Of a stretch of DNA of 64,000 bases, positions 21,446 through 38,703 are shown piece by piece. Each line of letters opens with the position of its first letter. Position 1 is the first letter of the stretch. The notes under the pieces are model-generated. The model made no database searches. It worked only from the letters and a program-made list of their open reading frames with translations, and was not told where the DNA came from. The DNA comes from a bacterium (GTDB lineage Bacteria > UBA8248), in NCBI GenBank assembly GCA_965213625.1, contig CBDBZU010000004.1, positions 3,520,001 through 3,584,000 of the forward strand, given 5' to 3'. The position numbers and the translations under genes are program-made.

Positions 21446-21865
21446 CTACTCTTTCTTACGTAGCCGCTCTCTGAGATTAATCATTGATTCGCATATTGCT
21501 TTTTGCACCTTGTCCACCGACACCGAGTAGCCCTTGAACTCTGGGAACAGGATGAAGAAGGCTTCCTCTAAGTCCTCGCCTGCCACAGAGCAAAACCCTT
21601 CAAATTTTTTGGGCTTGGGGCGAAACCGCCTATTGAACTTCTCCAAAGGCTTGCATATCTCATTGCGCACCTTATACGCTTCCACCAGGTTGCCATCGAA
21701 GCCTGGATACATGCCGACGATCCATTTCCTTACACTATCTCCGCTCGCATTACATAACCCCACGAACTTCGGGCGATTGCGGGAGCCTGGATGCTTTTCA
21801 GCGCCCACCGCGGGCGCGGCGGACAGCATAGCGAGGGCGAATAATGCGAGTATTGCGCGTTTCAT
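21446..21865 (-). CDS. Secreted passenger protein with a two-fold Cys-containing internal repeat
   Basis: Signal peptide MKRAILALFALAMLSAAPAVGA; repeats KFVGLC...KVRNEICKPL and KFEGFC...KVQKAICESM. Confidence 0.6.
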   Translation of the reverse strand: MKRAILALFALAMLSAAPAVGAEKHPGSRNRPKFVGLCNASGDSVRKWIVGMYPGFDGNLVEAYKVRNEICKPLEKFNRRFRPKPKKFEGFCSVAGEDLEEAFFILFPEFKGYSVSVDKVQKAICESMINLRERLRKKE

Positions 21866-22101
21866 TAAATTCTCCCCTTGCGCGAAAAAAAAGAGCTTCA
21901 TAGAAGCCCTGTAACGAACGAACTCAAGTTTACGAAGGATCTACCATTCGGGATTCTATATCCCCGACGCGGCGGCGGCGTCCTGCTAGCTCATACCGCC
22001 ATTGAAGATAACCAGAACAACAACAAAGGTAATAAGTTCTCCAGTATTGAGCCATTTCGGTTTTCTCATAACGCACACCTTTGATGGTGTCAAGGTGTTC
22101 T

Positions 22102-23043
22102 TTATGCCACCAAGTCATCATACCGGAGCCTCTTGCCGTGCATCCCAGATACGATGGACTCCATTTGCTCGATTGTGTCCATTGGTCGGATATTGTGTCG
22201 CCCTGCAAACTCGTTCACGTAACGTTCAAGATGCTTCTTGCTCATCTTGTGGAATGTTCCATTTTGAGCGCGCTTGAGCATGGCCCAGAAGCTCTCCACG
22301 CCGTTCGTATGCGCTTGCTTCCGCACGTATTCGCCTACGCTATGCTTCACGGCTTCATGGTCGTATCCGGCCATGTTTTCGTATGAGGAATGATCGTCGG
22401 TATACACCTTGGCCCCTTCCTTCACGTTGCTTTGGATGAAACCCTGCAAGGTCTCCCTGTCAGTCGATTCCACCACCTTGGCCTTGATGTGGTTTGTTTC
22501 CCGATCTTTTACGCCAGCGACAATCGCCTTGTCAACGGTTCCACGACCCTTGAGGTTAACCCGCTTTGACTTTCGCATGTTCTTGCGCTTTCCGCCAAAG
22601 TAGGACTCGTCCGCTTCCACGGGACCATCAAACTGCCCGCCGTTATCTCTCCACGTTTCCCTAATGCGGTGCATCATGAACCATGCGGTCTTTTGCGTTA
22701 CGCCCAAATCCCGATGCAACTTCATGCTTGAGACGCCCTTGAGATTCGTAGATGAAAGGTAGAACGCGATAGCCCACTTTTGCAAGGAAATCTTTGAGCC
22801 TTCCATGAGGGTGCCAGTCTTTATCGAGAAGTCCTTGCGGCAATCGCGGCAACGATAAGGCTGGGGCTTGCGTGTCTTTCTCTCTTGAATGTTCAGACCC
22901 CCACACTCAGGGCAACACACGCCGACGGGCCAGCGCGCCTTGATGAACCATGCCTCAGCCGACTTCTCATCGGGAAACATCTGGATGATCTCTATAAGTG
23001 AAATGCCCTTCCGGTATGCCTTGCCTGGTGCCTTGTGAGCCAT
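22102..23043 (-). CDS. IS1595-family transposase
   Basis: Zn ribbon CPEC/CRDC, KGVSSMKLHRDLG, VEADESYFGG, VYTDD, HTNGVESFW and YVNEF. Confidence 0.95.
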   Translation of the reverse strand: MAHKAPGKAYRKGISLIEIIQMFPDEKSAEAWFIKARWPVGVCCPECGGLNIQERKTRKPQPYRCRDCRKDFSIKTGTLMEGSKISLQKWAIAFYLSSTNLKGVSSMKLHRDLGVTQKTAWFMMHRIRETWRDNGGQFDGPVEADESYFGGKRKNMRKSKRVNLKGRGTVDKAIVAGVKDRETNHIKAKVVESTDRETLQGFIQSNVKEGAKVYTDDHSSYENMAGYDHEAVKHSVGEYVRKQAHTNGVESFWAMLKRAQNGTFHKMSKKHLERYVNEFAGRHNIRPMDTIEQMESIVSGMHGKRLRYDDLVA

Positions 23044-23098
23044 TGTCTAACCTCCTTATTTATGGAAGCAGTTTACCCGCGTTAAGGGAGGTTGTCAA
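23043..23098 (-). promoter_or_regulatory. Transposase promoter embedded in an RBS-sequestering inverted repeat
   Basis: On the minus strand, TTGACA-17 nt-TAAACT. TTGACAACCTCCCTTA can pair with TAAGGAGGTTAGACAA, which covers the RBS. Confidence 0.65.
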
Positions 23099-23162
23099 GT
23101 GCTATTTTGGAATACATTAGCAAACATGGTAAAATTAGAAAATTTTACCATGAGGGAGGTCA

Positions 23163-23600
23163 ATGAAACTAAACCCAATTTCAGCCGCCAAGAGAATGTG
23201 TGAGCGATCTGAGTGGTCATTGTCTAATCTGACTCTGCAGAAAATACTGTACATCGCCCACATGTATCATTTAGGATTGCATGATTCAGCCCTTGTGGAT
23301 GGTAATTTTCAGGCATGGGATTTAGGCCCAGTCCATCCAGATGTATATCATTACGTAAAGGTTTTTGGGGGAAGACCTATCAAAAACATTTTTCGTTCGG
23401 TAGCATCTGCAGGTGAAGGAACTGAAACAAAATTACTGGATCAAGCCGTCGATCAGTTAAGCGTGAAAAGTCCTGCTTCATTGGTAGAATTTACACATAG
23501 GGAAAATGGCGCATGGTCTAAATGCTATACTCCATATAAAAATAATGTTGTAATTCCCAATAATGATATAATGAATGAATACAAGGAACTTGCAAGATAA
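23163..23600 (+). CDS. Panacea-domain (DUF4065/SocA-like) antitoxin
   Basis: Motifs SNLTLQKILYIAH, FQAWDLGPVHPDVY and LVEFTHRENGAW. Confidence 0.88.
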   Translation: MKLNPISAAKRMCERSEWSLSNLTLQKILYIAHMYHLGLHDSALVDGNFQAWDLGPVHPDVYHYVKVFGGRPIKNIFRSVASAGEGTETKLLDQAVDQLSVKSPASLVEFTHRENGAWSKCYTPYKNNVVIPNNDIMNEYKELAR

Positions 23601-23605
23601 TTTAA

Positions 23606-23914
23606 ATGAGCGATCCGCCAGATTTTGAGAAAAATTTTTCTAAAGAAGACCCTACACCAAAGACAACCAATTTAGAGATTCTTCAAAGCAAAATAGATTC
23701 TTTGTCTGATGCTCAACTAGAAGAGCGATTCATATTTGGGTTAATCACAACCATTTTACTAAACGTCATTTTCTTCTCAGCCCTACCAGAAGGATGGGGA
23801 GGGCCAATAGCTATTTTAATTTTGGAATTAATACTTCTATTTGTTTTAGCGAAACGGCTAGGTATTGAAGAAGTGTCTCAGTTGATTGACAAATTACTTA
23901 ATCGATTTGGGTAA
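23606..23914 (+). CDS. Two-TM membrane protein, possible toxin partner of the Panacea protein
   Basis: Starts 5 bp after the antitoxin stop, has two hydrophobic helices, and its stop codon lies inside the IS1595 IR. Confidence 0.6.
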   Translation: MSDPPDFEKNFSKEDPTPKTTNLEILQSKIDSLSDAQLEERFIFGLITTILLNVIFFSALPEGWGGPIAILILELILLFVLAKRLGIEEVSQLIDKLLNRFG

Positions 23915-24068
23915 ACTCGTATATAATTCCCTTTGCAAAACCCCATTGGAGCAGGGGATAAGTTTCGAGGTTGCGTGAAGGTTGGAGGGATATAAGTGGA
24001 CAAGGGGGCGTTCCCTGCTATGTTGTGGTTATGAGCCCTACAACATCCTAAAGCGGAGGGAACGCCCC

Positions 24069-25135
24069 ATGTCCTTGGTATCGAGTTTAACCGACATCTG
24101 GAAGCGGTTTCAAGGTGAATTGTTTCCCAGGCTGTCCGAAGAGGTCGGCGAACTGCAAACGAAGCACAGGCGGCTGGTAGCCGTTCTCGACGTGGTTGCG
24201 GTGGAGGGCTTCGTCGGTGTGCGTAGCGGCGGGAGCGGTCGTCCGGCAGAAGACCGTGGGGCGCTGGCGCGCGCGTTCATCGCCAAGGCCGTATGGGACT
24301 TTCCGACCACGTCGCGTGTGACCCTGTGCTGCGGCGTCTGTGTGGCTGGTCGCGTGTGGGCGAGATACCGAGCGAATCGACGTTTTCGCGCGCCTTTGGA
24401 GAGTTCGCGCGGAGCAGGCTGCCCGAGCGGATGCACGAGGCCGTGGTCAAGGCGGCGTTTGAGGAGACGATTGTCGGTCACATCTCACGCGATTCGACCG
24501 CTATTGACGTTCGTGAGAAGCCCGAACCCAAAGACGGGAAGGCGAAACGGCCGAGCCGGCTGCAGCGGCAGTTGCGCATGGACCGCGACACGATGCTGGA
24601 TGAGTTGCCGACGGCCCCGACGGTTGGCTTGAGGAAAAACGCGAAGGGCTTTCTTGAGACCTGGAGGGGTTACAAGCTGCATGTGGACGCCGCCGACTCC
24701 GGGGTTCCCATTAGCTGCCTGTTGACCTCGGCCTCCCTGCATGACAGCCAGGCGGCCATCCCCCTAGCGACCCTGAGCACGGAACGGGTGACATACCTCT
24801 ATGAACTGATGGATGCGGCCTACGACAGCAAAGAGATCGGCCGGCACAGCTACCTCTCAGGTCATGTTCCGATCATCGACGTCAACACCCGCCGGGACAA
24901 GGAGCGTAAGAAGGAACGTGCCAGGGAGGCTCGCGCCCGGCGCTGCGCCGGATATAGCGACCCCCGAAGAGTGCGCTACAACGAACGCTCCACAGTCGAA
25001 CGCGTGAACAGCCGAATCAAGGATTCCTATGGCGGGCGCCACGTCCGCGTGCGGGGCCATGAGAAGGTCTTCTGCCACCTGATGTTCGGTGTCCTCGCCC
25101 TCACCGTCGATCAGCTCATGCGCCTGACGCTCTGA
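24069..25135 (+). pseudogene. Frameshifted transposase of IS copy 2
   Basis: A 19-bp deletion near 24310 relative to copy 1 splits the ORF. Confidence 0.9.
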
Positions 25136-25524
25136 ACCCGCACCGGCCCCATGGAACGACCTCGCATCCCGTCCCATAGCCTGAGCGGCGCGATGAAGCC
25201 TGCCCGGACGAACCCGGTTCGCCTGCTCTCTGGCCTCTCTTCCTCCCGCTCACCGCGAAACGCCCGATTCTCCAAACACATGCTGCGTTCCTCAAGCCCA
25301 CTTGGCCTCCTGCGCAATATCTCACAATCCTCCTTGAGGTTTTTGCAAGAAGCTCAGTGATTTTATCCTCGTGTCCACGCCTAAAATCGATTAGGGTATT
25401 GAAGCACGGTTCTGATTTGTACCATCATGCCAATCTCACCATAATGTAATCCATTTTCAAACCAAGTCCAAGTCACACCGTTATTTGTCATTTTTTTGGT
25501 TTCACATACCAATTTAATTGAGCA

Positions 25525-25954: not shown

Positions 25955-27983
25955 TTGCGCCAGGCTAAGCCCTGGAGAGGAGGACGCCATGACCTGAAAC
26001 CTCTCGTAGCGACCCAGCGGGTTCGACTCCCGTCCGGCAAAGGCGCAGCCAGCCAGCCGGAAGCGAGTCTTGCATGGCGTGTGGCAACGCGCGTCGTGAA
26101 GCGTAGACAGCAGGTGACGAAGCGGTGGGGTAAGCCTCGAAATCGGTGAATCGACGACGCCTTCATTGTTAATCGTGTGGGGGAGCACCGGAAGCGCCGC
26201 TATCGGCGAGGCGCAACGGGTCGTCCGGGGTCGTGGACCGGCGCAAAGTCACGGGGATGGGTCGCCAGGGAACCTGGGAGATCCTGCTCTTGCCCGTGGG
26301 CAAGAACGCTGGAAAGGGGACGGCCAGCGTGAACAATCCAGACCCCGGCCCGACGCCGGCCCTGCACGGCTACGGGAGCGCCCCATGGCGGACACGAACC
26401 CCGGCAGGCGCCCGCGGAACCGGCTGGCGAAAACAATAAGCCGAAGGAGATGCGAGAGCAGGAAGTCGTAGCGCCCTGATAGTACCGCTGAAGGCGGGGA
26501 ACCGCGGCCACCGGGACCCGCTGGAGGGAAGCGGGGCGTCATCTGTACAGAGCCACTGATGGGAAACGTTGGAGGAAACTCTGAGTTCCACGAACACGTA
26601 CACGAAACAGCAGTGGATAGCCGAACAGGCGAGGGAGCATCCGGAACGGGTGTTCACGTCCCTGCACCACCTCATCGACGGCGAGTGGATGCGCGAAGCG
26701 TATCGCCGCACGCGCAAGGATGGGGCGAGGGGTATCGACGGCGTGAGCGCCGCCGACTACGAGAAGGACCTGGAGGTGAATCTTGACGACCTCCTGAGCC
26801 GGATGAAGTCGGGTCGATACTTTGCGCCGCCGGTGCGTCGGCACTACATCCCGAAGGCGGACGGCACGAAACGACCGCTCGGCATTCCGACGTTTGAAGA
26901 CAAGGTGGCGCAGCGGGCAATCCTGATGCTGCTGGAGCCAATCTACGAGACGGACTTCCTGACGTGCTCGTACGGCTTCCGGCCCGGACGGTCGGCTCAC
27001 GATGCCCTGGACGCACTTCGCACGGGCATCATCGAGCAGCGCCAGCGGTGGGTGATTGACGCCGATATCTCGAAGTACTTCGACTCGATATCGCACACCC
27101 ACCTGCGGTCATTCCTCGACCTGCGGATCAAGGACGGCGTCGTAAGGCGCATGATAGACAAATGGCTGAAAGCTGGGGTTCTCGAAGAGGGCACCGTGCA
27201 CAGGCCGGTCAGCGGCACTCCCCAGGGTGGGGTAATCTTGCCAATGCTTTCCAACATCTTCCTGCACCACGTGCTGGATAAGTGGTTCGAGGAAGTGGCG
27301 AGGCCGCGCTTGCGCGGAAACTGCCAACTGGTGCGATTCGCCGACGACTTTGTCGTCGCCCTGGAAGACCGTCACAGCGGCAAGCGACTGCTTGACGTGC
27401 TGGACAAACGTCTCGGCCGATACGGACTCACACTCCATGAGGCCAAGACGCTCTATGTGGACTTCCGCCGGAGGCGTCCCTACGGGCGTCACTGGATGGC
27501 GTCGGCCACGACGTTCGACTTCCTCGGCTTCACCCACGTCTGGGGGCGGTCGATGCAAGGAAAGGACGTCGTCCGCCAAATTACGGCGAAAGGCCGCTTC
27601 GCCCGCGCGCTGAAATCGGTGCACGAATGGTGCAAGAGAAACCGGCACCTGCCGATTAAGGCGCAGCATGACTATCTCGTCCGGGCGATACGAGGCCACT
27701 GCGCATATTACGGTCTGAGGGGGAACGGCAAACGTCTTCGGTGGTTCCGCTACCAGGTGGCTCGCTCGTGGCGGAAGTGGCTTGCGCGCCGCAACCGCCT
27801 GCGCCGGATGAACTGGGACCGGATGAACGCGCTCCTCATGCGATATCCCCTTCCATATGTCTCTTACGCGCGCTCACGGCAAAGCTTCTTGAGTGAACCT
27901 GTCAGGTGAGGTACCGAGTGCGTCAATCGCGCACGCTCGGGTCTGTGGGGGGCGGGGAGTAGAAATGCCCCCGCCTACCCGGC
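25955..27983 (+). mobile_element. Group II intron (bacterial lineage, no endonuclease domain)
   Basis: 5' end TTGCGCCAGG; domain V/VI after the ORF (CCGAGTGCG..CGCACGCTCGG; GGGGCGGGG..CCCCGCCTACCCGGC). Boundaries estimated by eye. Confidence 0.85.
26569..27909 (+). CDS. ltrA: Group II intron reverse transcriptase/maturase
   Basis: RPLGIPT, SYGFRPGRS, DADISKYFD, GTPQGG, RFADD, FDFLGF and an X domain; no HNH domain. Confidence 0.93.
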   Translation: MEETLSSTNTYTKQQWIAEQAREHPERVFTSLHHLIDGEWMREAYRRTRKDGARGIDGVSAADYEKDLEVNLDDLLSRMKSGRYFAPPVRRHYIPKADGTKRPLGIPTFEDKVAQRAILMLLEPIYETDFLTCSYGFRPGRSAHDALDALRTGIIEQRQRWVIDADISKYFDSISHTHLRSFLDLRIKDGVVRRMIDKWLKAGVLEEGTVHRPVSGTPQGGVILPMLSNIFLHHVLDKWFEEVARPRLRGNCQLVRFADDFVVALEDRHSGKRLLDVLDKRLGRYGLTLHEAKTLYVDFRRRRPYGRHWMASATTFDFLGFTHVWGRSMQGKDVVRQITAKGRFARALKSVHEWCKRNRHLPIKAQHDYLVRAIRGHCAYYGLRGNGKRLRWFRYQVARSWRKWLARRNRLRRMNWDRMNALLMRYPLPYVSYARSRQSFLSEPVR

Positions 27984-28107
27984 CCATCCGCGTTCGACAG
28001 TATCCCGCCAGGGTGCGCTGTCGTTATAATGAATCTGCTTGCGGCATGATTACATTTGTTTTAATAAATATGCAACTGATTCAAAAACAATAACTTAATT
28101 TTAATAT

Positions 28108-28346
28108 TCTGGATATATCGATAAAATTAGATAAATTCACGGGGTATTTCGGTAAATAACTGCAAATTGTTTTCATGGGAAATGACGCATCGGAACCGCG
28201 ACGCAGGGGAATTCTGCCACGGTTCGCCAGTTTTGCAGTGACGGCAAATACGGGGAGTTGCGGGGCGGAATGCTCCCGGATACGCGAGCCTCGCGGGCCG
28301 TTGGGATTCGGAACCGGAGGAACCGGCGGTGATCACACGGGGGGTT
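28108..28346 (+). ncRNA. Unidentified structured non-coding element, copy 1
   Basis: About 80% identical by manual alignment to the reverse complement of 33481-33719 over the ~167-nt core. Substitutions are compensatory or wobble-preserving, and an indel breaks any shared reading frame. Confidence 0.55.
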
Positions 28347-28431
28347 CGGGTGGCTCTACAAAGAGCGAAGCAAGTGAGATGTAATATCAACTATAAATCA
28401 TAACTATATGAAATATAACGTAGTATCATTT

Positions 28432-29307
28432 TTATTTCGATGCGGAATTCACCAGATATATACCGGCCGATATCAAAACCGCGCCGCCGAGCATGAGCTG
28501 CGTGAGGGGTTCGGCGAGCAGCAGGGCGCCCGTCAGGACCCCGAACACGGGTGTCAGGAACATGAAAACGCCCACGCGGCTCGCCGGGTAGTCCGTCAGC
28601 AGCCAAAGCCAGGGGATCATGGCCAGCCCCGTGCCGATGAGGCCGCTGTAGCCCACGCCCGTAAGGACGTTTGTATCGGTGAGGTCGGGCCAGGCCTCGC
28701 CCAGAAACGAGGCGACGATAAAGAACGGGATCACGGCCAGAAGCTGCGTCCAGGCGGTGATTCTGAAGGCGTCGAAGCTCCTGAGCCTCATCTTCAAGAA
28801 TATCGACTGCACCGCCCATACCACGGCCGCCAGGACGACGACGGCGTCCCCGTACCAGGTGGAGCCGCCCGCCGAGGAGAGCCTGTCGCCGAAGAGTAAC
28901 ACCATGCCCAGGCTCGCGGCGATGAAGCCTGAAACCGCGCGTACGCCCACTCTCTCGTGGGGGAGAATCCACGCCGCCAGCGCCGTCAGCAACAAGGGCT
29001 GGGAGTAGAGGAACAGCGAGGCGCGCCCGGCTGTGGTGTTGTCCACGCCGTGATAATAGGTGATGAACATCAAGTTGTGCAGGCAGGCGTTGATCCAGAA
29101 ATCGCGACTCTCCCCCCTCCAGCTTGGGCGCGGCGGCAAAACCGGCATTTTTCGAATGAGCATGATCAAAATAACGCTCGACGCCGAAATGATGCCCCTC
29201 AGCCATAAAAACGTGAAAGGCTCCACGCCGCGCAGACCTATCTTAGCCGCGGGAAAGCTCAGGCCCCACAGAAAGGTGACGGTGAAAATCAAAACGAAAA
29301 ATCGCAA
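28432..29307 (-). CDS. EamA/DMT-family transporter
   Basis: About 10 TM helices in two EamA repeats (LWGLSF, LTPVFG..LLAEPL). Confidence 0.88.
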   Translation of the reverse strand: MRFFVLIFTVTFLWGLSFPAAKIGLRGVEPFTFLWLRGIISASSVILIMLIRKMPVLPPRPSWRGESRDFWINACLHNLMFITYYHGVDNTTAGRASLFLYSQPLLLTALAAWILPHERVGVRAVSGFIAASLGMVLLFGDRLSSAGGSTWYGDAVVVLAAVVWAVQSIFLKMRLRSFDAFRITAWTQLLAVIPFFIVASFLGEAWPDLTDTNVLTGVGYSGLIGTGLAMIPWLWLLTDYPASRVGVFMFLTPVFGVLTGALLLAEPLTQLMLGGAVLISAGIYLVNSASK

Positions 29308-29383
29308 TTCCTGCCTATCCTTTCAGCGAATCCGCACAATTTCAGGAATCACACGGCGGGTGAAATCCGGGGAAAGCACATCT

Positions 29384-30004
29384 TCAGCTATCGGACTCAT
29401 TTTTCTTGGGAAACGGCTCCAAATCTTTCAAATCTACTTTCTGCTCGAGTTCGTCGTGGCAGGCGTCACAACGCGGCTGCGCCGTGGCCGCCACCATGAA
29501 CCCTTTTTCCCTCTCCCCACCGAGGCGGTGGCCGTTGTGGCACTGTACGCAGCCCGCCTTGAGCTCCGCGTGGTCCGAGATGGCGTGAAACGCGTCGTCG
29601 GCCAGCTCCAGGAGACGCTCCTCGTCGTGACACTTCACGCAGTCCTTATCGAGAATGGGGTGGAAAACGCGCGAGGGCTGTTCATAATCACCAATAATGA
29701 ACTTGTAGAGGTCCTTGTTCGCGAGAATCGTCGTGCGGATCATCCCCGTAATGCCCTCTTCCCCATGACAGGATATGCACCTCACCTCGCCAGCACTCTT
29801 ATGCCACCCGCCCAGCGTCTTGACCTTGTTCTTGGCGCGTGCGCCATCGTCGAGATAATCCTGGTGATCCTGAAGATGGCAGACCGTACAAAACGGATCG
29901 TAGGACTCCACTGCTCGTATCCCGTAAAGACTGCCGACCCCGAGCAAAGGGGACAGTAAGACGAGCAGAATCAACCACCACCATCGTCTCCGGGAGCTTC
30001 GCAT
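29384..30004 (-). CDS. Membrane-anchored pentaheme cytochrome c (NapC/NirT-like)
   Basis: N-terminal TM helix; heme motifs CTVCH, CISCH, CVKCH, CVQCH and CDACH. Confidence 0.85.
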   Translation of the reverse strand: MRSSRRRWWWLILLVLLSPLLGVGSLYGIRAVESYDPFCTVCHLQDHQDYLDDGARAKNKVKTLGGWHKSAGEVRCISCHGEEGITGMIRTTILANKDLYKFIIGDYEQPSRVFHPILDKDCVKCHDEERLLELADDAFHAISDHAELKAGCVQCHNGHRLGGEREKGFMVAATAQPRCDACHDELEQKVDLKDLEPFPKKNESDS

Positions 30005-30141
30005 TCAGGTTCTCCTCGGCGCAAGCATGGCGCAACCTGCACCCTGCGTTCGGCAGGATAAAATAACCGCCACAGATTCTTTCTCTTCCTCATTATAGCG
30101 CGATTTGCTAGGATGGTTCTCAGTGATGGGAGGTTGATTAG

Positions 30142-30504
30142 ATGGCCAGAACAAGATTCAGCGCGAACAGACGCCGCCCGGGGAGAAGAAGCGCTCCCAA
30201 GCCGGCCACCCCTACCGGAGAAAGCGCAAAACAGATAGCCGCGCGCCTGAAGTCCTCGGCGAGCATAGGGAAGAGCGCGCAGGATTACAGGCGCAAGTCG
30301 CTCGATATTCACGGCTGGTTCTGCGCGAAATGCGGTCGGGATTTCGATGAAAACAACCTCCACATCCTGACGGTCCACCACCGGGACGGCGACCACAAGA
30401 ACAATCCGCCCGACGGCAGTAACTGGGAGAATCTGTGCGTGGATTGCCATGAGGACGAACACTCCCGTGACATGCTGGGTCGCTATCTGAGCGATGACCG
30501 TTAA
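30142..30504 (+). CDS. yajD: YajD-family HNH nuclease
   Basis: CAKCGRDF...LTVHHRDGDHKNNPPDGSNWENLCVDCH. Confidence 0.85.
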   Translation: MARTRFSANRRRPGRRSAPKPATPTGESAKQIAARLKSSASIGKSAQDYRRKSLDIHGWFCAKCGRDFDENNLHILTVHHRDGDHKNNPPDGSNWENLCVDCHEDEHSRDMLGRYLSDDR

Positions 30505-30531
30505 AATCCTCGATCAAACACGTTCAACGTC

Positions 30532-31821
30532 ATGATACTTTCGGTCAAACCATCCATCGCCAAAGGGACCACTGGTGTTCCCGGTTCGAAATCCCACTCC
30601 ATCCGCGCCGTCGCATTCGCATCCCTGGCGTCAGGAAAAAGCGCGATTCTAAACCCCCTCGATTCTGCGGACGGCCTCTCCGCGGCGAGCGTCTACGGCA
30701 ACTTCGGCGCCGAGATCCACAAGGAGAAAGAGCTCTGGGCGGTGCATGGATTCGGCGCTCGACCCAATGCCCCACAAGGGGTCCTCAACGTGGGAAATTC
30801 GGGGACTACCTGCCGGATGGCGCTCGGCACCGCCGCCCTCATGCGGGAGGGCGAAGCGCGCTTCGACGGCGATTCCCAGACCAGAAAACGGCCGATGGGG
30901 CCGCTGCTAGATGCGCTCTCGAATCTGGGCGCAACGGCGCAATCGAGTAATAACGGAAATCTGCCCGTCACGGTAGGCGGCCCTTGGCGCGGCGGCAGGA
31001 CGAAAGTCGACGGCACGACCAGCCAGTTCACGTCCTCCCTGCTCTTGAACGCGCCTTTCGGCGAGGAGACGACCACAATCGAGCCGATAGAACTGAACGA
31101 GCGTCCCTACGTAGAGATGACGCTGTGGTGGCTGGATCGCCTGGGACTAAAATACGAGCGCGATGAATACCGCAGCTTTACCGTTCCGGGCGGACAGGCG
31201 CTCTCGGGATTCGAAGTAACAGTACCCGCCGATTGGAGTTCCGCCGCTTTTCTGGTGGCCGCAGGCGCGCTGCCGGGCGGCGACGTGACGCTCGAGGGTC
31301 TGGACCTCGACGACTCGCAGGGCGACAAGGAAATTCTCCAGTTCGCCGAAGCCATGGGGGCCGAGGTTTTCGTATCCGAGGAAAACATCCGAATCCGCTC
31401 AAAGGCGCTGCGCGGAGGAGAATTCGACTTGAACGCCACACCCGACCTGCTTCCCGTCATGGCCGTGCTCGCCGCGTTCGCAGACGGGGAGACCAGGCTC
31501 GTCAACACGCCCCAGGCTCGCATCAAGGAGACCGATAGAATCGCCGCCATGCGCGAAGTCATCGAAACGCTGGGCGGCCAAGCGAGCGAACTGGCGGACG
31601 GTATCATCATCCAGGGCGGCGGACTCAAAGGCGGAGCCGTTCACGGTTTTGGCGATCACCGCATCGTCATGTCCGCCGCCATTGCCGGACTCGCCGCGTC
31701 AGAGGGGGTATCGGTCGACACGGCGGAGGCGATGGCGGTAACATTCCCTAATTTTTGCGAACGCATGGCGTCAATTGGCGCGGACATGGAAACGAGGGAT
31801 TCACCCGATGCCGATATATGA
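30532..31821 (+). CDS. aroA: 3-phosphoshikimate 1-carboxyvinyltransferase
   Basis: PGSKSHS, GNSGTT, RPM, SQFTSSLL, RIKETDRI and DHRIVM. Confidence 0.96.
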   Translation: MILSVKPSIAKGTTGVPGSKSHSIRAVAFASLASGKSAILNPLDSADGLSAASVYGNFGAEIHKEKELWAVHGFGARPNAPQGVLNVGNSGTTCRMALGTAALMREGEARFDGDSQTRKRPMGPLLDALSNLGATAQSSNNGNLPVTVGGPWRGGRTKVDGTTSQFTSSLLLNAPFGEETTTIEPIELNERPYVEMTLWWLDRLGLKYERDEYRSFTVPGGQALSGFEVTVPADWSSAAFLVAAGALPGGDVTLEGLDLDDSQGDKEILQFAEAMGAEVFVSEENIRIRSKALRGGEFDLNATPDLLPVMAVLAAFADGETRLVNTPQARIKETDRIAAMREVIETLGGQASELADGIIIQGGGLKGGAVHGFGDHRIVMSAAIAGLAASEGVSVDTAEAMAVTFPNFCERMASIGADMETRDSPDADI

Positions 31822-32140
31822 ATACGAATGCAGGGAGTGCGGCTTCATCTCCGGCCACCTGGTCATGAAGCCTTCAGACAGGAGAAAACTCACCTGCCGC
31901 TCCTGCGGGAATAAAAAACTGAGAAAAATAATGTCGCGCTTCTCCTCGCATCAGACCGAAGCACAGCGACTCGATTCCTTCGATCCCTCGAAGCCGCAGG
32001 ATGGCTCTTTCTACAAGGACGATCGCAACATCGGGCTCTGGGCCCAGAAACGCGCCCAGCAGTTGGGCGTCGATTTGGGTGATTCATTCGGTGAAACCCT
32101 AGAAAAGGGCCGCTCCAAAAAAATTCTCGACAATCTGTGA
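31808..32140 (+). CDS. FmdB-family zinc ribbon protein
   Basis: MPIYEYECRECG...CRSCG...KIMS. Confidence 0.85.
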   Translation: MPIYEYECRECGFISGHLVMKPSDRRKLTCRSCGNKKLRKIMSRFSSHQTEAQRLDSFDPSKPQDGSFYKDDRNIGLWAQKRAQQLGVDLGDSFGETLEKGRSKKILDNL

Positions 32141-32147
32141 GGCTACG

Positions 32148-32828
32148 TTGAACCCTGAAACGAGGATGAGCGAAACGCTACGCGCCGAGGTGGAGCCGCT
32201 TTGGGAAAAAATTCACGCGCACCCCTTCGTCCGCGGCATCGGGGACGGCACACTGCCGCTGGAGCAGTTTCGTTTCTACATGTGTCAGGACTACATTTTT
32301 TTGAAGGAATACAGCCGCGTTATCGCCCTGGCCGTCGTGAAGGCCCCCGACCTGGCAGAGATGGGACGTATCGCCGATCTTTTGAACGCCACGCTGAACA
32401 CCGAGATGGAACTCCACAGGGGCTTTGCAGCGAAATTCGGAATCTCGAATGATGAAATCGAAGCGACGAAGCCCGCGCCCACATGCAAGGGATACACCGA
32501 TTTCCTGCTGGAGGCGGCCTATTCGGGCACGTTTGGAGAGATAGCCGCCGCCATGCTCCCCTGCCAGTGGGATTACGCCATCATCGGTGAATTGCTCGCC
32601 GCCAGAGGCATCCCCGAGAACGCGCCGCTCCATGCCGAGTGGATAGAGACTTACGCGTCTGAAGAGTTCGCGCAACTGGCCCGCTGGCTGCGCGATATGT
32701 TCGACGAGGCCGCGTCGACGGCGGGCCCCGCCGAGCGCGAGCGCATGCGCGCGCATTTTCTGATGGGCACGCGATATGAATACCTCTTCTGGGATATGAG
32801 CTGGAAGATGGAGGAATGGCCCCTGTAG
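32148..32828 (+). CDS. tenA: Thiaminase II / TenA
   Basis: HPFVRGIGDGTL, YMCQDYIFL, catalytic Cys in LPCQWDY, WIETY and EYLFW. Confidence 0.92.
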   Translation: MNPETRMSETLRAEVEPLWEKIHAHPFVRGIGDGTLPLEQFRFYMCQDYIFLKEYSRVIALAVVKAPDLAEMGRIADLLNATLNTEMELHRGFAAKFGISNDEIEATKPAPTCKGYTDFLLEAAYSGTFGEIAAAMLPCQWDYAIIGELLAARGIPENAPLHAEWIETYASEEFAQLARWLRDMFDEAASTAGPAERERMRAHFLMGTRYEYLFWDMSWKMEEWPL

Positions 32829-32855
32829 CCCCAAGCCCGCCTGTCGAGAGAATAT

Positions 32856-33389
32856 ATGTCCCCCAGAACGCGAAAAGACCTCCCCAATCCGACAAGATGC
32901 ACGTGGGCCGAGGGCGACCCGGTGATGGAGAAATACCACGACGAGGAATGGGGATTTCCCGTCCGTACAACCCGTAAACACTTTGAACAATTGACTTTAG
33001 AGATATTTCAGGCGGGCCTCTCCTGGCGCACGATACTCCACAAACGAGAGGCGTTCAGGGAAGAATTCATGCGCTTCTCGCCCGAAAAAGTCGCTTGTTT
33101 CACCGAGAAGGACATCGAGCGCATTCTCGGGAATCCGGGCGTCGTGCGGAATCGCAAGAAGATCGAGGCCACCATCGAGAACGCCGGGAGATTCCTCGCC
33201 ATCAAGAAGAAACACGGCTCGTTCAACCGCTATCTCGCCTCGCTGCCGGACGATCTGCCCTCGCTGCAAAAGATATTCCGCGCGGAATTCACCTTCATGG
33301 GTCCCAAGATCGCCGAAGCTTATCTCGAGAGCGTCGGCAAGATACCCACACCCCACGATCCACACTGCTGGCGCGCGAACAAACAATAA
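32856..33389 (+). CDS. tag: DNA-3-methyladenine glycosylase I
   Basis: RCTW, YHDEEWG, FQAGLSWRTILHKR, VRNRKKIEATIENA and the HxxxC Zn site. Confidence 0.93.
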   Translation: MSPRTRKDLPNPTRCTWAEGDPVMEKYHDEEWGFPVRTTRKHFEQLTLEIFQAGLSWRTILHKREAFREEFMRFSPEKVACFTEKDIERILGNPGVVRNRKKIEATIENAGRFLAIKKKHGSFNRYLASLPDDLPSLQKIFRAEFTFMGPKIAEAYLESVGKIPTPHDPHCWRANKQ

Positions 33390-33480
33390 TAGTCTTTAAA
33401 TATCAGTAAGTTGAATTCGATATGTAATGTGTTTTCTCATAACTGCCCAGCCCTTCGTTCCGCTGTTTTGTCTTCACGAT

Positions 33481-33719
33481 AACCCCGTGTGATCATCACC
33501 GGTTCCTCCAGTTCCGCACACCTGCGGCCCGCGAGACTCACGAATCCGGTGGAATCTCACCCCCGCAACTCCCCGCATTTGCCGTTTTCGAGAAGGTCGC
33601 GGGCCATGGCAGAATTCCCCTGCGTCGCGGTTCCGCGGCGTCATTTCTGAACAATTTAATTTGTTGGATATTTATCGAAAAACCCCGTGAATTTATCGGT
33701 ATTTATCGATATTTTCAGA
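33481..33719 (-). ncRNA. Unidentified structured non-coding element, copy 2 (inverted)
   Basis: Diverged reverse-complement copy of 28108-28346, located between convergent genes. Confidence 0.55.
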
Positions 33720-34018
33720 TATTATTATTTGTATTTATTTCGATTTCCGCCCCGCCCCGGAGCGGCCATTCTTCACCTGCGAGCAGCACCCGTTTCCCCC
33801 CCCTGAAAACCGAGGGCCTGCGGGCGGCCTTCCTATCGTACCCCGTCGCCCCGAAATGCAGGTGACGGCAATTGCCGGGAAATGCGCGTCCCCCGCTCCA
33901 GCGAGGGGCACGACGACTTCGCCTGCGCGCCTTGCGTCACCGGCGATGCGGAGCGGGTTCATCCGGCTTCATGATTGCAGCCGGAGCCAATCGGCACGCC
34001 GCGCGCCTCCCCTGCTCC

Positions 34019-34966
34019 CTACTCAGGCGCCGCCTCGCGCTTCGGCGCTTTAAGCGGCAGCCCCAGCACGCGGGCCGGGTTCTTGTGCAGCATCGTCTCT
34101 ATCTCGCGAGGCTTGATGCCGTTCTCGAGCATGAGCTGTACGAACACGCGCAGGCCCTCCCAGGGAGGTGCGTTGTGGAGCTGGCCCAGGTCGGTGGAAA
34201 GAATCGTCCTGGCCGCGCCCACGGCCTTCACCATCTTCGCCTGCTCCTTCACGGAGATGGGCGGCGCGTTCTCATCCGTCGGGTACGCGCCCCAGTGGGT
34301 GAAGCAGAATATCGCCAGGTGCTCGATGTAGGCCCCCATCTTGGCGAATTCCACCTGCTCCTCGATGGACGCGTCCACGATGTACTCGGGGTGCTGCACG
34401 ATGATGTGCTTCACCCCCTCTTCTTTCGCGAGGGGGATCAGGGCGCGCACCTCCTCCACGTCCAGGTGCCCCGTGCTCAGGCAGATTCCCGCGTCGGCGA
34501 TGAGCTTGCAGATGGTCTTGACCTCAGGGAGTATCTTGGTGCGTTTCGCATCGGAGAAGATGGTGAGACCCTCTTCTTTCAGCTTCACGCCGCTTGTCTG
34601 CTTCATGCCCGGGAAATGCGGCGCGCCCAGTTTTTCCAGGTGGTTCAGCGAGCTGATGGTGGGCATCCAGACCATCTTCGCCCCCATCTTGATGGCGGTG
34701 TCCACCGCGAAGGGGTTGAACCCGCCCACCGGGCTGTTGAGCGCGATGCCCCCGTATATCTCGATGGCGTCGCCCATCACCTCGCGCACGATGGGGATGC
34801 GGCCCGACGTATCGCCGTGATGAATCTTGAACACCACGCCGCGCATGCCCACCGATGCCGCACCGCGCGCGCACTCGATGTGGTCGCAGACGCGCGGGAA
34901 CAGGCTGGGCGATGCGTGGATGTGGGTGTCGATTGCGCCGTGGAGCAGCCTCTGGTCTTCTCTCAT
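34019..34966 (-). CDS. Amidohydrolase-like TIM-barrel protein (DUF6282-like)
   Basis: IDTHIHASP, VWMPT, STGH, LSTDLGQ and NPARVLG. Confidence 0.75.
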   Translation of the reverse strand: MREDQRLLHGAIDTHIHASPSLFPRVCDHIECARGAASVGMRGVVFKIHHGDTSGRIPIVREVMGDAIEIYGGIALNSPVGGFNPFAVDTAIKMGAKMVWMPTISSLNHLEKLGAPHFPGMKQTSGVKLKEEGLTIFSDAKRTKILPEVKTICKLIADAGICLSTGHLDVEEVRALIPLAKEEGVKHIIVQHPEYIVDASIEEQVEFAKMGAYIEHLAIFCFTHWGAYPTDENAPPISVKEQAKMVKAVGAARTILSTDLGQLHNAPPWEGLRVFVQLMLENGIKPREIETMLHKNPARVLGLPLKAPKREAAPE

Positions 34967-36930: not shown

Positions 36931-36962
36931 CAACGAGAAAAGAAGTTCACTCCCCCCTTGAG

Positions 36963-38482
36963 GGGTCTGTTGAAAAACCCGGTGTTGGAAGCGGGCGTTT
37001 TGGCGGCTCACGCGGCGGCGGGGAGGCAGCCCAATTGGCGCGTGAGGGCGCCATGTGCGCGCAGCCGGCGTCTCCGGGCGGCACAGGCCGTCCAGAGGGC
37101 GAATATACGCGCCGCAAAAGCGGCGGCCAGCCGCTTGAGGTTCACCGCTATCGCCGTCAGGTAGGACTGGATCCGCATGTTCGCAAGGCCCCGGCGCACC
37201 GCCCGCCCCAGTCCGTGCCGGCTCTTCGCCTCGCCGTGGTAGCCCTCCGAGCGCCAACGGTGGCGGCCATAGAGACGCTTCTCCTCCTCCCCCCAGCGCG
37301 CATGCCGCCGACGCGCGCGCAACAGCGCCGGATACGCGTTGGGAATCAACACCGCCTTGCTCGTTTGCGACTTCGACAGACAATCGGACCTGAGCGCGCA
37401 GCCCGCGCAATCCCGCGTCTTCGATACATAGGAGCGCCCCCGCTCCGTCGCCTGCCGGGGACGCAGCGTCTTGCCTCCCGGACACTTCACCACCTCGTTG
37501 CGCGCATCGTAGTGGAACAACTGCAGCGGAACACGGCTCTGGCTGGGTTCCTTCTTCGCTGGTATCAGCGCTTCCACGCCCCGCCGCTCCAATTCGCCAT
37601 AAACCTTCGAGTACGCGTAGCCCGAATCCGCCGTCACCATCTCCGGCGCGCGGCCCGACAACTCGCTTACCGCCTCTATATGGGACGCCATCATCTCACG
37701 CTCGTTCCGCGTCCCCTCCGTCACCGACACGTCGAGAACAACACCCCGCTCATCGTCCACCGCCGCGTGCTGCTTGTAGCTCGGCTCGAACCCCGCCCGC
37801 GCGCTCTTGCGCGCAAGCCGCGCGTCCGGGTCCGTCCGGCTCACCCGACCCCCGCCACCGCGGCCTCCTCCCTTCTTCTCCCCCTCATCATCGACGGGAT
37901 TCTCCCGAATCACCTTCTCCGCGTGGTGCGCCGCCAGACTCTCCCAGCTCACGTCCGCGCGTATCAACGAGGCGTCCACGTGTACCACTTCCCCCTTCGC
38001 CACATTCGCCTCCAGGCAAGCCTGCACCGTGCGACGGAATATCTCCTTGAACCGAGCCTCCCCCCACCGCTGACGAATCCGCGTCAGGCTCGAATGATGC
38101 GGCAAATCCTCGTGCAGCCCGTACCCGATGAACCACCGGATCGCCAGGTGCGCACGCGCCTCGCGAAGCAGACGCCGGTCGTGTACGTAGCCCAGCAACA
38201 TACCCGCCAGCATCAGGCGCAACGCCACCTCCGGGTCGATCCCCGGTCGACCGTTATCCGCGCAATAGCAATCCGCCACCTCCGCGCGAAGCCAACTCAA
38301 ATCCAGTACGCGGTCCACGCGCATCAGGACGTGATCCTCGGGGATCAACCGTTCCAGCGAACCGGCCACGAACAAATCCATCTGCTCGCGCCCCTTGCTG
38401 CCTATCATCTCGGGAACTCCCATCTCGGGCGAGATAGTGTCATTACACCCAATCACAATGCCGGGGGTTTTTCAACAGCCCC
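36963..38482 (-). mobile_element. IS1182-family element A (1520 bp)
   Basis: IRs GGGTCTGTTGAAAAAC / GGGGCTGTTGAAAAAC; TTGAG is directly duplicated at 36958-36962 and 38483-38487. Confidence 0.92.
37008..38408 (-). CDS. IS1182-family transposase
   Basis: LIPEDH, GRPGIDP, VHVDAS, TADSGY, CPGG..CAGCALRSDC and EAK..HGL.RA..RG. Confidence 0.93.
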   Translation of the reverse strand: MIGSKGREQMDLFVAGSLERLIPEDHVLMRVDRVLDLSWLRAEVADCYCADNGRPGIDPEVALRLMLAGMLLGYVHDRRLLREARAHLAIRWFIGYGLHEDLPHHSSLTRIRQRWGEARFKEIFRRTVQACLEANVAKGEVVHVDASLIRADVSWESLAAHHAEKVIRENPVDDEGEKKGGGRGGGGRVSRTDPDARLARKSARAGFEPSYKQHAAVDDERGVVLDVSVTEGTRNEREMMASHIEAVSELSGRAPEMVTADSGYAYSKVYGELERRGVEALIPAKKEPSQSRVPLQLFHYDARNEVVKCPGGKTLRPRQATERGRSYVSKTRDCAGCALRSDCLSKSQTSKAVLIPNAYPALLRARRRHARWGEEEKRLYGRHRWRSEGYHGEAKSRHGLGRAVRRGLANMRIQSYLTAIAVNLKRLAAAFAARIFALWTACAARRRRLRAHGALTRQLGCLPAAA

Positions 38483-38703
38483 TTGAGGGGGAGTCGAAGA
38501 GGCCAAGCCCTTGGGCGAAGGCCGATTCGGTGGGGGGACGGTTCTAAATGAAAAGCTCCCCCCACCGGTTCGGTTTCGGGGGAAAACCCCCTCACCTCAC
38601 CGACTCCCCCTCAAGGGGGGAGTGAATCCCTTTCCACCTCGGTCAGGGTTAACCCTCAAGGGAGGAGTTGATTTGTAATTCTCCTCAGTGGGGAGCGGTC
38701 TTG

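Follow-up and report, generated by a model that had tools for sequence, protein, structure and literature searches.

A genus-wide family of modular DNA repeats with inward-facing pairs around gene blocks in a UBA8248 bacterium, probably distinct from a pair of small-RNA genes

Two related but diverged elements of about 240 nt, here called copy A and copy B, face each other across 5.6 kb in a 64-kb stretch of the genome of a UBA8248 bacterium (hereafter the window: positions 3520001-3584000 of contig C4 of genome G000). Copy A lies at about 28104-28351 of the window on the + strand and copy B at about 33723-33476 on the - strand. Our main finding is that A and B are probably two members of a many-copy, modular DNA repeat family that is spread genus-wide, and not a pair of small-RNA genes. 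We tentatively read these repeats as protein-bound DNA sites that would represent the ends, or the recombination sites, of old gene-block modules tied to tandem tyrosine recombinases.

RESULTS

A many-copy modular repeat confined to one genus

The genome carrying the window (4.15 Mb, 59% G+C, 96.6% complete) contains the 5′ module of the element, M1 (~60 nt), at 64 places according to BLAST and at 67 according to an nhmmer profile search (27 on the + strand and 40 on the - strand), adding up to only ~0.1% of the genome. A second module, M2 (~100 nt), directly follows M1 at 27 places, a count reached after 5 of 32 anchor matches proved spurious and were removed. The third module, M3 (a further 85 nt), is within G000 common to A and B only. 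A first-pass annotation, based on the letters of the stretch, had presented A and B as a two-copy pair, and this description falls with the 64 (BLAST) or 67 (nhmmer) M1 places, 27 of them with the core, in the same genome. What it had described of the elements themselves was borne out: A and B are related copies (79% identity over ~240 nt, E 4e-50; the BLAST alignment spans 241 nt, query 3-243, and the mean column identity in the MAFFT alignment is 80%), both have a 5′ part that is AT-rich and contains GATAAA boxes and TCACGGGG, and the GC-rich core consists of invariant blocks and variable segments.

Elsewhere in G000, recurrent sequences of several other classes come after the same M1, among them one with a sigma-70-like motif and a hairpin, one made of arrays of an 11-nt G-rich unit, and one abutting an inverted group II intron flank. 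By eye, the class-II payload after M1 comprises a TTGTAA..N16..ATAAAT motif, a CTGAG..CTCAG hairpin and an A-run (for example at G000:C4:1804955-, 1522988- and 2044946-, and in loci L042, L046, L073 and L089); it has no Rfam match, and may be a small transcription unit.

Outside G000, a 16-mer of M1 has many matches per genome in chromosomes of metagenome-assembled genomes (MAGs) of 3.9-4.5 Mb and in MAGs with Nitrospinota in their titles. Lone matches of the 16-mer in unrelated taxa are at chance level (596 Gb, for which we estimate that a few hundred would be expected). Of the 22 other genus members, 17 gave a match to a 166-nt query covering M1 and M2. No match came from 19 genomes representing eight other genera of the taxonomic family, nor from 9 additional genomes of the class, and the repeat is thus restricted to one genus. 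A limited search of the Nitrospinota and sponge-symbiont literature, by title or abstract, returned no account of such repeats, and it is on this limited search together with Rfam that we call the family undescribed.

Close pairs of M1 face inward

All 11 adjacent M1 pairs of G000 that are separated by less than 20 kb, A/B among them, have the order + then -, and thus face inward. The distances within these pairs are 2.5, 3.8, 5.6 (A/B), 7.4, 10.2, 12.6, 13.2, 14.1, 16.3, 17.6 and 18.3 kb. None of 20000 strand shuffles reached 11 inward pairs. Under uniform placement, ~18 close neighbours of any orientation would be expected, and the nearest non-inward neighbours of G000 are 21.9 kb apart, with none closer; the median neighbour distance is 18 kb for the 20 inward pairs versus 54-94 kb for the other orientations. 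The first gene inside each pair end can point in either direction (5-6 of 11 each), indicating that gene direction does not explain the inward rule.

When M1 sites were located in other genomes with a 15-mer pattern allowing at most one mismatch, the close pairs facing inward were 10 of 10 in G026, 6 of 8 in G002 and 5 of 8 in G008 (39 of 43 sites listed). Genome G007, though negative with the canonical query, has a variant box at 27 places (0 in the reversed control), including both ends of the block that runs from the EamA gene to the glycosylase gene between A and B, and all four of its close pairs face inward by eye.

Association with tandem tyrosine recombinases

A Pfam search of G000 gave 29 matches to PF00589, comprising at least 9 tandem pairs ~1.2 kb apart and two trios, and the products of the tandem genes combine an arm-type DNA-binding domain with a catalytic domain (PF13356, PF00589). 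The rve-type DDE transposase family PF00665 had 0 matches in G000, the controls matching in 6 of 14 genomes. The trios of tyrosine-recombinase matches lie in tandem at G000:C4:16461-18341 and 4112546-4114426, and their layout is RIT-like.

Several recombinase modules join directly onto the repeats. Two independent ones (C4:4071924 and C4:5733) abut a class-I copy in which M1 is cut just before the third box, the C4:5733 module being repeated in a 99.8% identical segmental duplicate. Two others (C4:487666+ and 337060-) start exactly with the first ~22 nt of M1. The segmental duplication itself (G000:C4:447-13048 and 186462-198102) is 99.8% identical over 3.7 kb, has matching gene lists over ~12 kb and includes both the recombinase module and the class-I copy among its contents.

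With the first recombinase as query and E<=1e-40 as threshold for presence, the recombinase coincided exactly with M1+M2: both were found in the same 17 of 22 genus members, and both were missed in the other five (G001, G007, G009, G033 and G034). In G010 there is a single match each of the recombinase and of M1+M2.

Copies are inherited at the same sites across species

The A/B block (5 kb) is kept in 12 members of the genus with 78-88% identity, and its outer flanks differ between genomes. Copy B occupies the same place in G011, G005 and G003 (77-82% identity); at its site, G012 and G002 carry M1 followed by another class, G006 and G008 carry a short-tailed M1, and G004, G010 and G009 carry nothing. 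In G011, G002 and G008, the three genes found to the right of B in G000 are 10-21 kb away, and are either inverted or located on the opposite side. Two further units behaved alike: the copies have stayed at their sites by inheritance, and some genomes show a rearrangement or loss at the element. Opposite-strand joints seen in contigs were considered as possible inversions and rejected, the joints coming from paralogous copies at 85% likeness.

Helical phasing, block-wise conservation and location of the modules

The 5′ edge of M1 is sharp (AATT.CTGAAAA). M1 is made up of three or four CGATAAA-type boxes, and AAAT and CG recur in it at lags of 10, 21, 31 and 41 nt; that is, the boxes are in phase with the DNA helix, at ~10.5 and 21 bp. 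Across the 24 full class-I copies, per-column identity is ~1.0 in the boxes and in GATAAATTCACGGGGTT, CGCAGGGGAATTCTGCCA and ACGGCAAATGCG, and 0.45-0.55 in the two variable spacers, the lengths of which are near constant. As many as 17 adjoining columns are invariant across these 24 copies, of which the mean whole-copy identity is 75% and the maximum 92%, with 5 of 276 pairs at 85% or above. Such low whole-copy identity speaks against a recent burst, and the presence of invariant blocks in old, diverged copies suggests either that the blocks are under selection or that the copies convert one another.

According to gene calls made with a crude caller of our own (3486 genes), 61 copies are intergenic, with 39 in tandem, 11 in divergent and 11 in convergent regions, a distribution near the length-based expectation. 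Pfam searches on 19 of the 23 same-direction genes downstream of M1 revealed unrelated functions (e.g. KsgA, MnmA, pyruvate dehydrogenase E1 and transaldolase), and for this reason M1 as the operator of a regulon was ruled out. When compared by eye with consensus sequences, M1 fitted none of the sigma-28, sigma-54, IHF, Fur or dif motifs. A small open reading frame (ORF) on the reverse strand was also considered, as 48-50 of 57 copies have uninterrupted frames, with ATG or GTG kept; it was rejected because the invariant columns coincide with third positions of codons. No clear pattern was seen by eye in the orientation of the copies relative to the replichores.

No terminal inverted repeats were found in A or B, and a weak, inverted partial M1 occurs downstream in only 4 of 67 copies. 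A miniature inverted-repeat transposable element (MITE) was rejected as an identity for the family, since A and B lack terminal inverted repeats and no target-site duplication was seen by eye flanking the pairs. A repetitive extragenic palindromic (REP) sequence or bacterial interspersed mosaic element (BIME) with a REP-associated tyrosine transposase (RAYT) was likewise rejected: the M1 boxes are direct repeats and not a palindrome, and the GTAG-headed palindrome family of the genome is separate.

The RNA reading

The first-pass annotation had proposed that A and B form a new structured RNA family with covarying stems, and this proposal found no backing in Rfam matches, a promoter, a terminator or covariation. 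At gathering score, Rfam 15 matched only the group II intron at 26024-26240 in the whole window; at E<=10 there was nothing over A or B in the region 27500-34300, and eight loci of other classes gave nothing at the elements. Neither A nor B has a sigma-70 promoter or an intrinsic terminator. Their single-sequence folds are not unusually stable (z of -0.89 for A and -2.19 for B), and RNAalifold on 57 M2 copies from several genomes returned a 3-bp hairpin only, with 0 compensatory changes. Folding the spacers of the 57 copies one by one revealed no common hairpin. The long-range pair that had been suggested would not be maintainable across the family, because a variable spacer (identity 0.45-0.55) faces a near-invariant partner.

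The other three stems of the first-pass annotation are located in M3, and were evaluated on seven copies, namely A, B and five from G011, G026, G029 and G030. Here, 78.3% of the cells pair, compared with an average of 77.1% after shuffling (the observed value was reached in 143 of 500 shuffles), and the 2 double changes were reached by 283 of 500 shuffles, so that neither pairing nor double changes do better than shuffled alignments. A control with slid partners was 29-46% paired, showing only that the M3 consensus is self-complementary. An alternative hairpin on the same C-run was no better than the stems first proposed. The G-U wobbles that had been taken to mark one strand amount to 8 cells versus 12 A-C cells; with G-U not above A-C, no strand is indicated. 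Apparent compensatory changes between two diverged copies of a repeat can thus vanish once the family is sampled, which calls for caution in similar cases.

Three functions had been suggested for the elements. A sponge for CsrA fails because no CsrA gene was found: PF02599 had no match at E<=0.01 in this 96.6% complete genome, a search for which the control gave matches in 3 of 14 genomes. A guide or bridge RNA fails because the matches of the spacers do not go beyond chance or paralogues; for 24 spacers, the longest exact matches in the rest of the genome average 13.6 nt versus 12.6 nt for shuffled ones, and the long ones among them are paralogous copies. The third suggestion, a non-autonomous mobile element, came closest. 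On the evidence, the family is a multi-copy, modular repeat at the DNA level and is tied to recombinase genes.

Organization of copies A and B, the bracketed block and its surroundings

Module M1 of copy A (28104..28163, + strand; nhmmer match at contig positions 3548107-3548163) is an AT-rich array of CGATAAA-type boxes with an invariant GATAAATTCACGGGG core and a G+C content of 35%. It is followed on the same strand by M2 (28164..28265), in which the 57-copy alignment defines three invariant blocks (GACGC.., CGCAGGGGAATTCTGCCA and ACGGCAAAT..GTTGCGGGG) with two variable spacers of fixed length between them, and by M3 (28266..28351), a hairpin-prone extension whose final part is a second CACGGGG..TTCGG motif. 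A direct repeat within copy A links 28138-28153 with 28336-28351. In copy B, on the - strand, the alignment places M3 at 33476..33560 and M2 at 33561..33663, and M1 lies at 33664..33723 (nhmmer match at contig positions 3553721-3553665). The skew towards a G-rich strand is strong (+0.23 for A and -0.22 for B, measured on the + strand), and the elements are strand-asymmetric.

Between the two copies, AT-rich tails extend from copy A to the stop codon of the EamA gene (28352..28431; similar tails occur at orthologous loci) and from copy B to the stop codon of the glycosylase gene (33390..33475). The bracketed block (28432..33389) consists of ordinary genes, for which Pfam indicates an EamA transporter (-), a NapC/NirT-type cytochrome c (-), an EPSP synthase (+), TenA (+) and a 3-methyladenine glycosylase (+).

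The left flank, with a DDE transposase and a group II intron, is specific to G000. The intron spans 26024-27983 (+), with an RF02005 match of 122.5 bits at 26024-26240 and a weak RF00029 match at 27909-27983, and its reverse-transcriptase ORF (446 aa, PF00078) lies at 26569-27909. It is adjoined on its left by a DDE_Tnp_1 transposase gene (24293-25135, +). The flank at 21500-25300 was not found in four of the five relatives searched, the fifth having a 341-nt match only. A motif at ~28026-28056 (AATGAATCTGCTTGCGGCATGATTAC) occurs near M1 in other genomes and, in one class, inverted directly 3′ of M1. On the other side of the block, 36950-38500 is a multi-copy stretch resembling an insertion sequence, with ORFs of 531 and 482 aa and many copies in relatives at 83-94% identity.

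Repeats are common in the genome at large. Other abundant intergenic repeats of G000:C4 include the GTAG-headed palindrome GGGACAGGTCGCGACCTGTCCC (~140 copies), CCCCTCAAGGGGGGAGTG (~130), GGGTTGTTGAAAAAG (~110) and GCCGGAATGACG (~100). The most similar pair of the M1 family (92%; G000:C4:409800-410510 and 417987-418700) is also alike over ~700 nt outside M1, a stretch made up of further repeats that include a tandem 24-nt unit, CAAACCCTCGCTCATCGGTCGGGT. Another stretch of 2.2 kb (L147:1-2182, G000:C4:1335500-1337681) is 96-98% identical in four other species, where it is non-syntenic; its last 180 nt are multi-copy and it ends ~130 nt before an M1. This stretch is probably a recently exchanged mobile element.

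DISCUSSION

Under the interpretation that we favour tentatively, A and B would form the two end-modules, left and right, of a single bracketed gene block of 5.6 kb, and would belong to a genus-wide family of ~165-nt modular DNA repeats. M1, a 60-bp array of phased boxes with a fixed core, may serve as a multi-site protein-binding platform, to which M2 could contribute three more invariant blocks at fixed spacing. The sites would act as DNA rather than RNA. The gene-block modules would be old and by now recombinase-less, and might be handled or targeted by the tandem tyrosine recombinases, by a logic akin to that of the terminal inverted repeats of tyrosine-recombinase transposons or of inversely oriented pdif sites around dif modules.

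Several known systems offer comparisons. Four of five groups of tyrosine-recombinase transposons (SE, GInt, RIT and Tn554) are described as encoding several recombinases and as having imperfect terminal inverted repeats and target-site specificity (PMC10214605). The recombinase modules of G000 resemble these groups in having tandem tyrosine recombinases at one end of a unit, in a genome without rve-type DDE transposase. The differences are that the known terminal repeats measure 13-34 bp whereas M1 is a 60-bp array of phased boxes, that most of the bracketed blocks lack a recombinase and that no inverted M1 was seen at the far ends of the modules, and membership in these groups is at most a candidate one.

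The dif modules of Acinetobacter plasmids are flanked by pdif (XerC/XerD) sites. There too, inversely oriented asymmetric sites bracket discrete gene modules that occur in varying contexts. In contrast, M1 lacks the 11-6-11 layout of inverted arms typical of Xer sites, its boxes being direct repeats with 10 and 21 bp spacing, and the sites described here are chromosomal, in modules that do not share back-to-back sites. Invertons and shufflons have inverted site pairs of consistent polarity at many loci of one genome, with recombinases acting in trans. Our family shares with them the many inverted, polar site pairs per genome, but its segments are 2.5-18 kb long and contain whole operons, no recombinase is adjacent, and no second orientation was observed in the three genomes with conserved context (abstracts on such systems: PMC9881135 and PMC11602134).

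The ends of Tn7, Mu and Tn5053 carry several phased transposase-binding sites, and the likeness to M1 lies in arrays of direct-repeat boxes in both ends, with the ends mutually inverted; the difference is that G000 has no rve-type DDE transposase (0 matches to PF00665). The BIME and REP sequences of enterobacteria and the BOX elements of pneumococci are many-copy, intergenic, modular repeats. Like them, the present family has many intergenic copies with modules in varying combinations, but M1 is not palindromic, is helically phased, follows a rule of neighbour orientation and is found in one genus only.

A number of observations weigh against the repeats being ends or recombination sites of recombinase-handled modules. 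The bracketed genes are core-like, and they stay together in G004, G009 and G010, which are without M1 at both ends. For a 2.6-kb unit whose context is kept in G026, G011 and G008, the orientation of the block is unchanged in 3 of 3, and therefore no flipping was seen. About 40 of the 67 M1 copies have no close partner. Because pair spacings recur between genomes, the pair counts of different genomes represent largely the same inherited, orthologous pairs and not independent trials (orthology was verified for three pairs). Similarly, the co-occurrence of recombinase and M1 may reflect one split in the genus, since related genomes are not independent, and G007 has the variant sites with no close homologue of the recombinase found at E<=1e-40. 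Pfam revealed no recombinase in or beside the A/B block, and no target-site duplication was seen at the pairs. No inverted M1 was seen at the far end of the modules at C4:487666+ and 337060-, their homology stopping at the stop codon of the second gene.

These points leave room for other explanations. An abundant host protein could bind the phased M1 arrays and the oriented sites could be polar boundaries of gene blocks, with possible roles as transcription roadblock or terminator, as limits of supercoil domains or as loop anchors, the recombinases merely preferring the sites for landing. The inward rule being independent of gene direction, the pairs and spacings kept across species, the helical phasing of M1, blocks conserved without recent spread and the unrelated functions of the genes downstream of M1, which leave no regulon operator, all agree with such architectural or insulating sites, as does the variant box of G007, which is found at both block ends and ~20 other loci and fits co-evolution with one trans-acting protein. 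Nevertheless, a candidate for the binding protein was not found, the bracketed blocks number just a dozen or so per genome and many copies are single, and the recombinase junctions and the identical presence/absence pattern would have to be coincidence; we regard this explanation as rather unlikely. We consider it unlikely, and a shade more so, that the family is a selfish or neutral mosaic repeat of the BIME, BOX or enterobacterial repetitive intergenic consensus (ERIC) kind, functionless now, with the pairs as relics of local inverted duplication and the invariant blocks kept by gene conversion. The genome is indeed rich in other intergenic repeats (the GTAG-headed palindrome alone reaching ~140 copies), the regions outside M1 are a patchwork of further repeats, introns and insertion sequences, and in the two class-I/class-I pairs the members are mutually nearest relatives in their pair-specific parts. 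However, such a repeat would not account for 17 adjoining invariant columns in 24 copies of 75% mean identity, nor for the lack of outward or same-direction neighbours below 20 kb where ~18 close neighbours are expected, and the inward rule holds in the variant-box genome as well.

Two transcript-based explanations appear weaker still. In one, the family would consist of non-coding RNA genes, transcribed over M2 alone or M2 plus M3, with M1 as an atypical promoter or upstream element. The strand-asymmetric combination of fixed-spacing blocks and G-rich skew would suit such genes, M3 is self-complementary in register (78% versus 29-46% when slid), and another class following M1 has, by eye, a sigma-70-like motif and a hairpin. 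We nonetheless doubt it strongly, given that Rfam yields no match even at E<=10, that A and B have no sigma-70 promoter or terminator, that the folds are unremarkable (z of -0.9 and -2.2) with 0 compensatory changes by RNAalifold and no consistent spacer hairpin, and that covariation in M3 stays within shuffles with A-C mismatches exceeding G-U; moreover, the inward-facing pairing would be left unexplained. In the other, the element would act at the 3′ end of genes and be read from the opposite strand: in reverse complement, M2 is rich in C but poor in G and leads into AT-rich sequence, which might provide Rho loading and termination for the incoming gene. Of 61 intergenic copies, 37 have a downstream gene that converges on the element and whose stop codon is often just a few bases from the G-rich end, and the strand skew fits. 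Yet the downstream gene runs in the same direction as the element in the other 24 of 61, the split among intergenic types is near the length-based expectation, and tandem operons would yield same-direction neighbours, of which there are none below 20 kb, so that this explanation seems very improbable.

A more far-reaching reading would be a chromosome-wide system of this genus. A single protein would recognize the oriented 60-bp arrays of phased boxes, which converge around about a dozen blocks of 2.5-18 kb of ordinary genes. The system would either set polar boundaries, comparable to convergent boundary sites but in a bacterium, or allow a pair of tandem tyrosine recombinases to flip or move the blocks, much like dif modules on a chromosome, with sites and protein co-evolving. 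The latter aspect is suggested by the variant boxes present at all loci of one divergent species. As a whole, this reading is speculative and rather improbable.

Short-read contigs break inside M1 on both sides of the A/B block (at 28129-28157 and 33647-33696 of the window), and one contig of 5568 nt covers exactly 28129-33696. The M1 sites account for breaks of short-read assemblies in these organisms. The co-occurrence of the repeats with the tandem recombinases provides a concrete, bench-testable hypothesis. If the interpretation favoured here holds, the repeats would represent an undescribed means by which chromosomal genes are packaged into blocks that are insulated or addressable by recombinases, and this in a lineage seen only in metagenomes.

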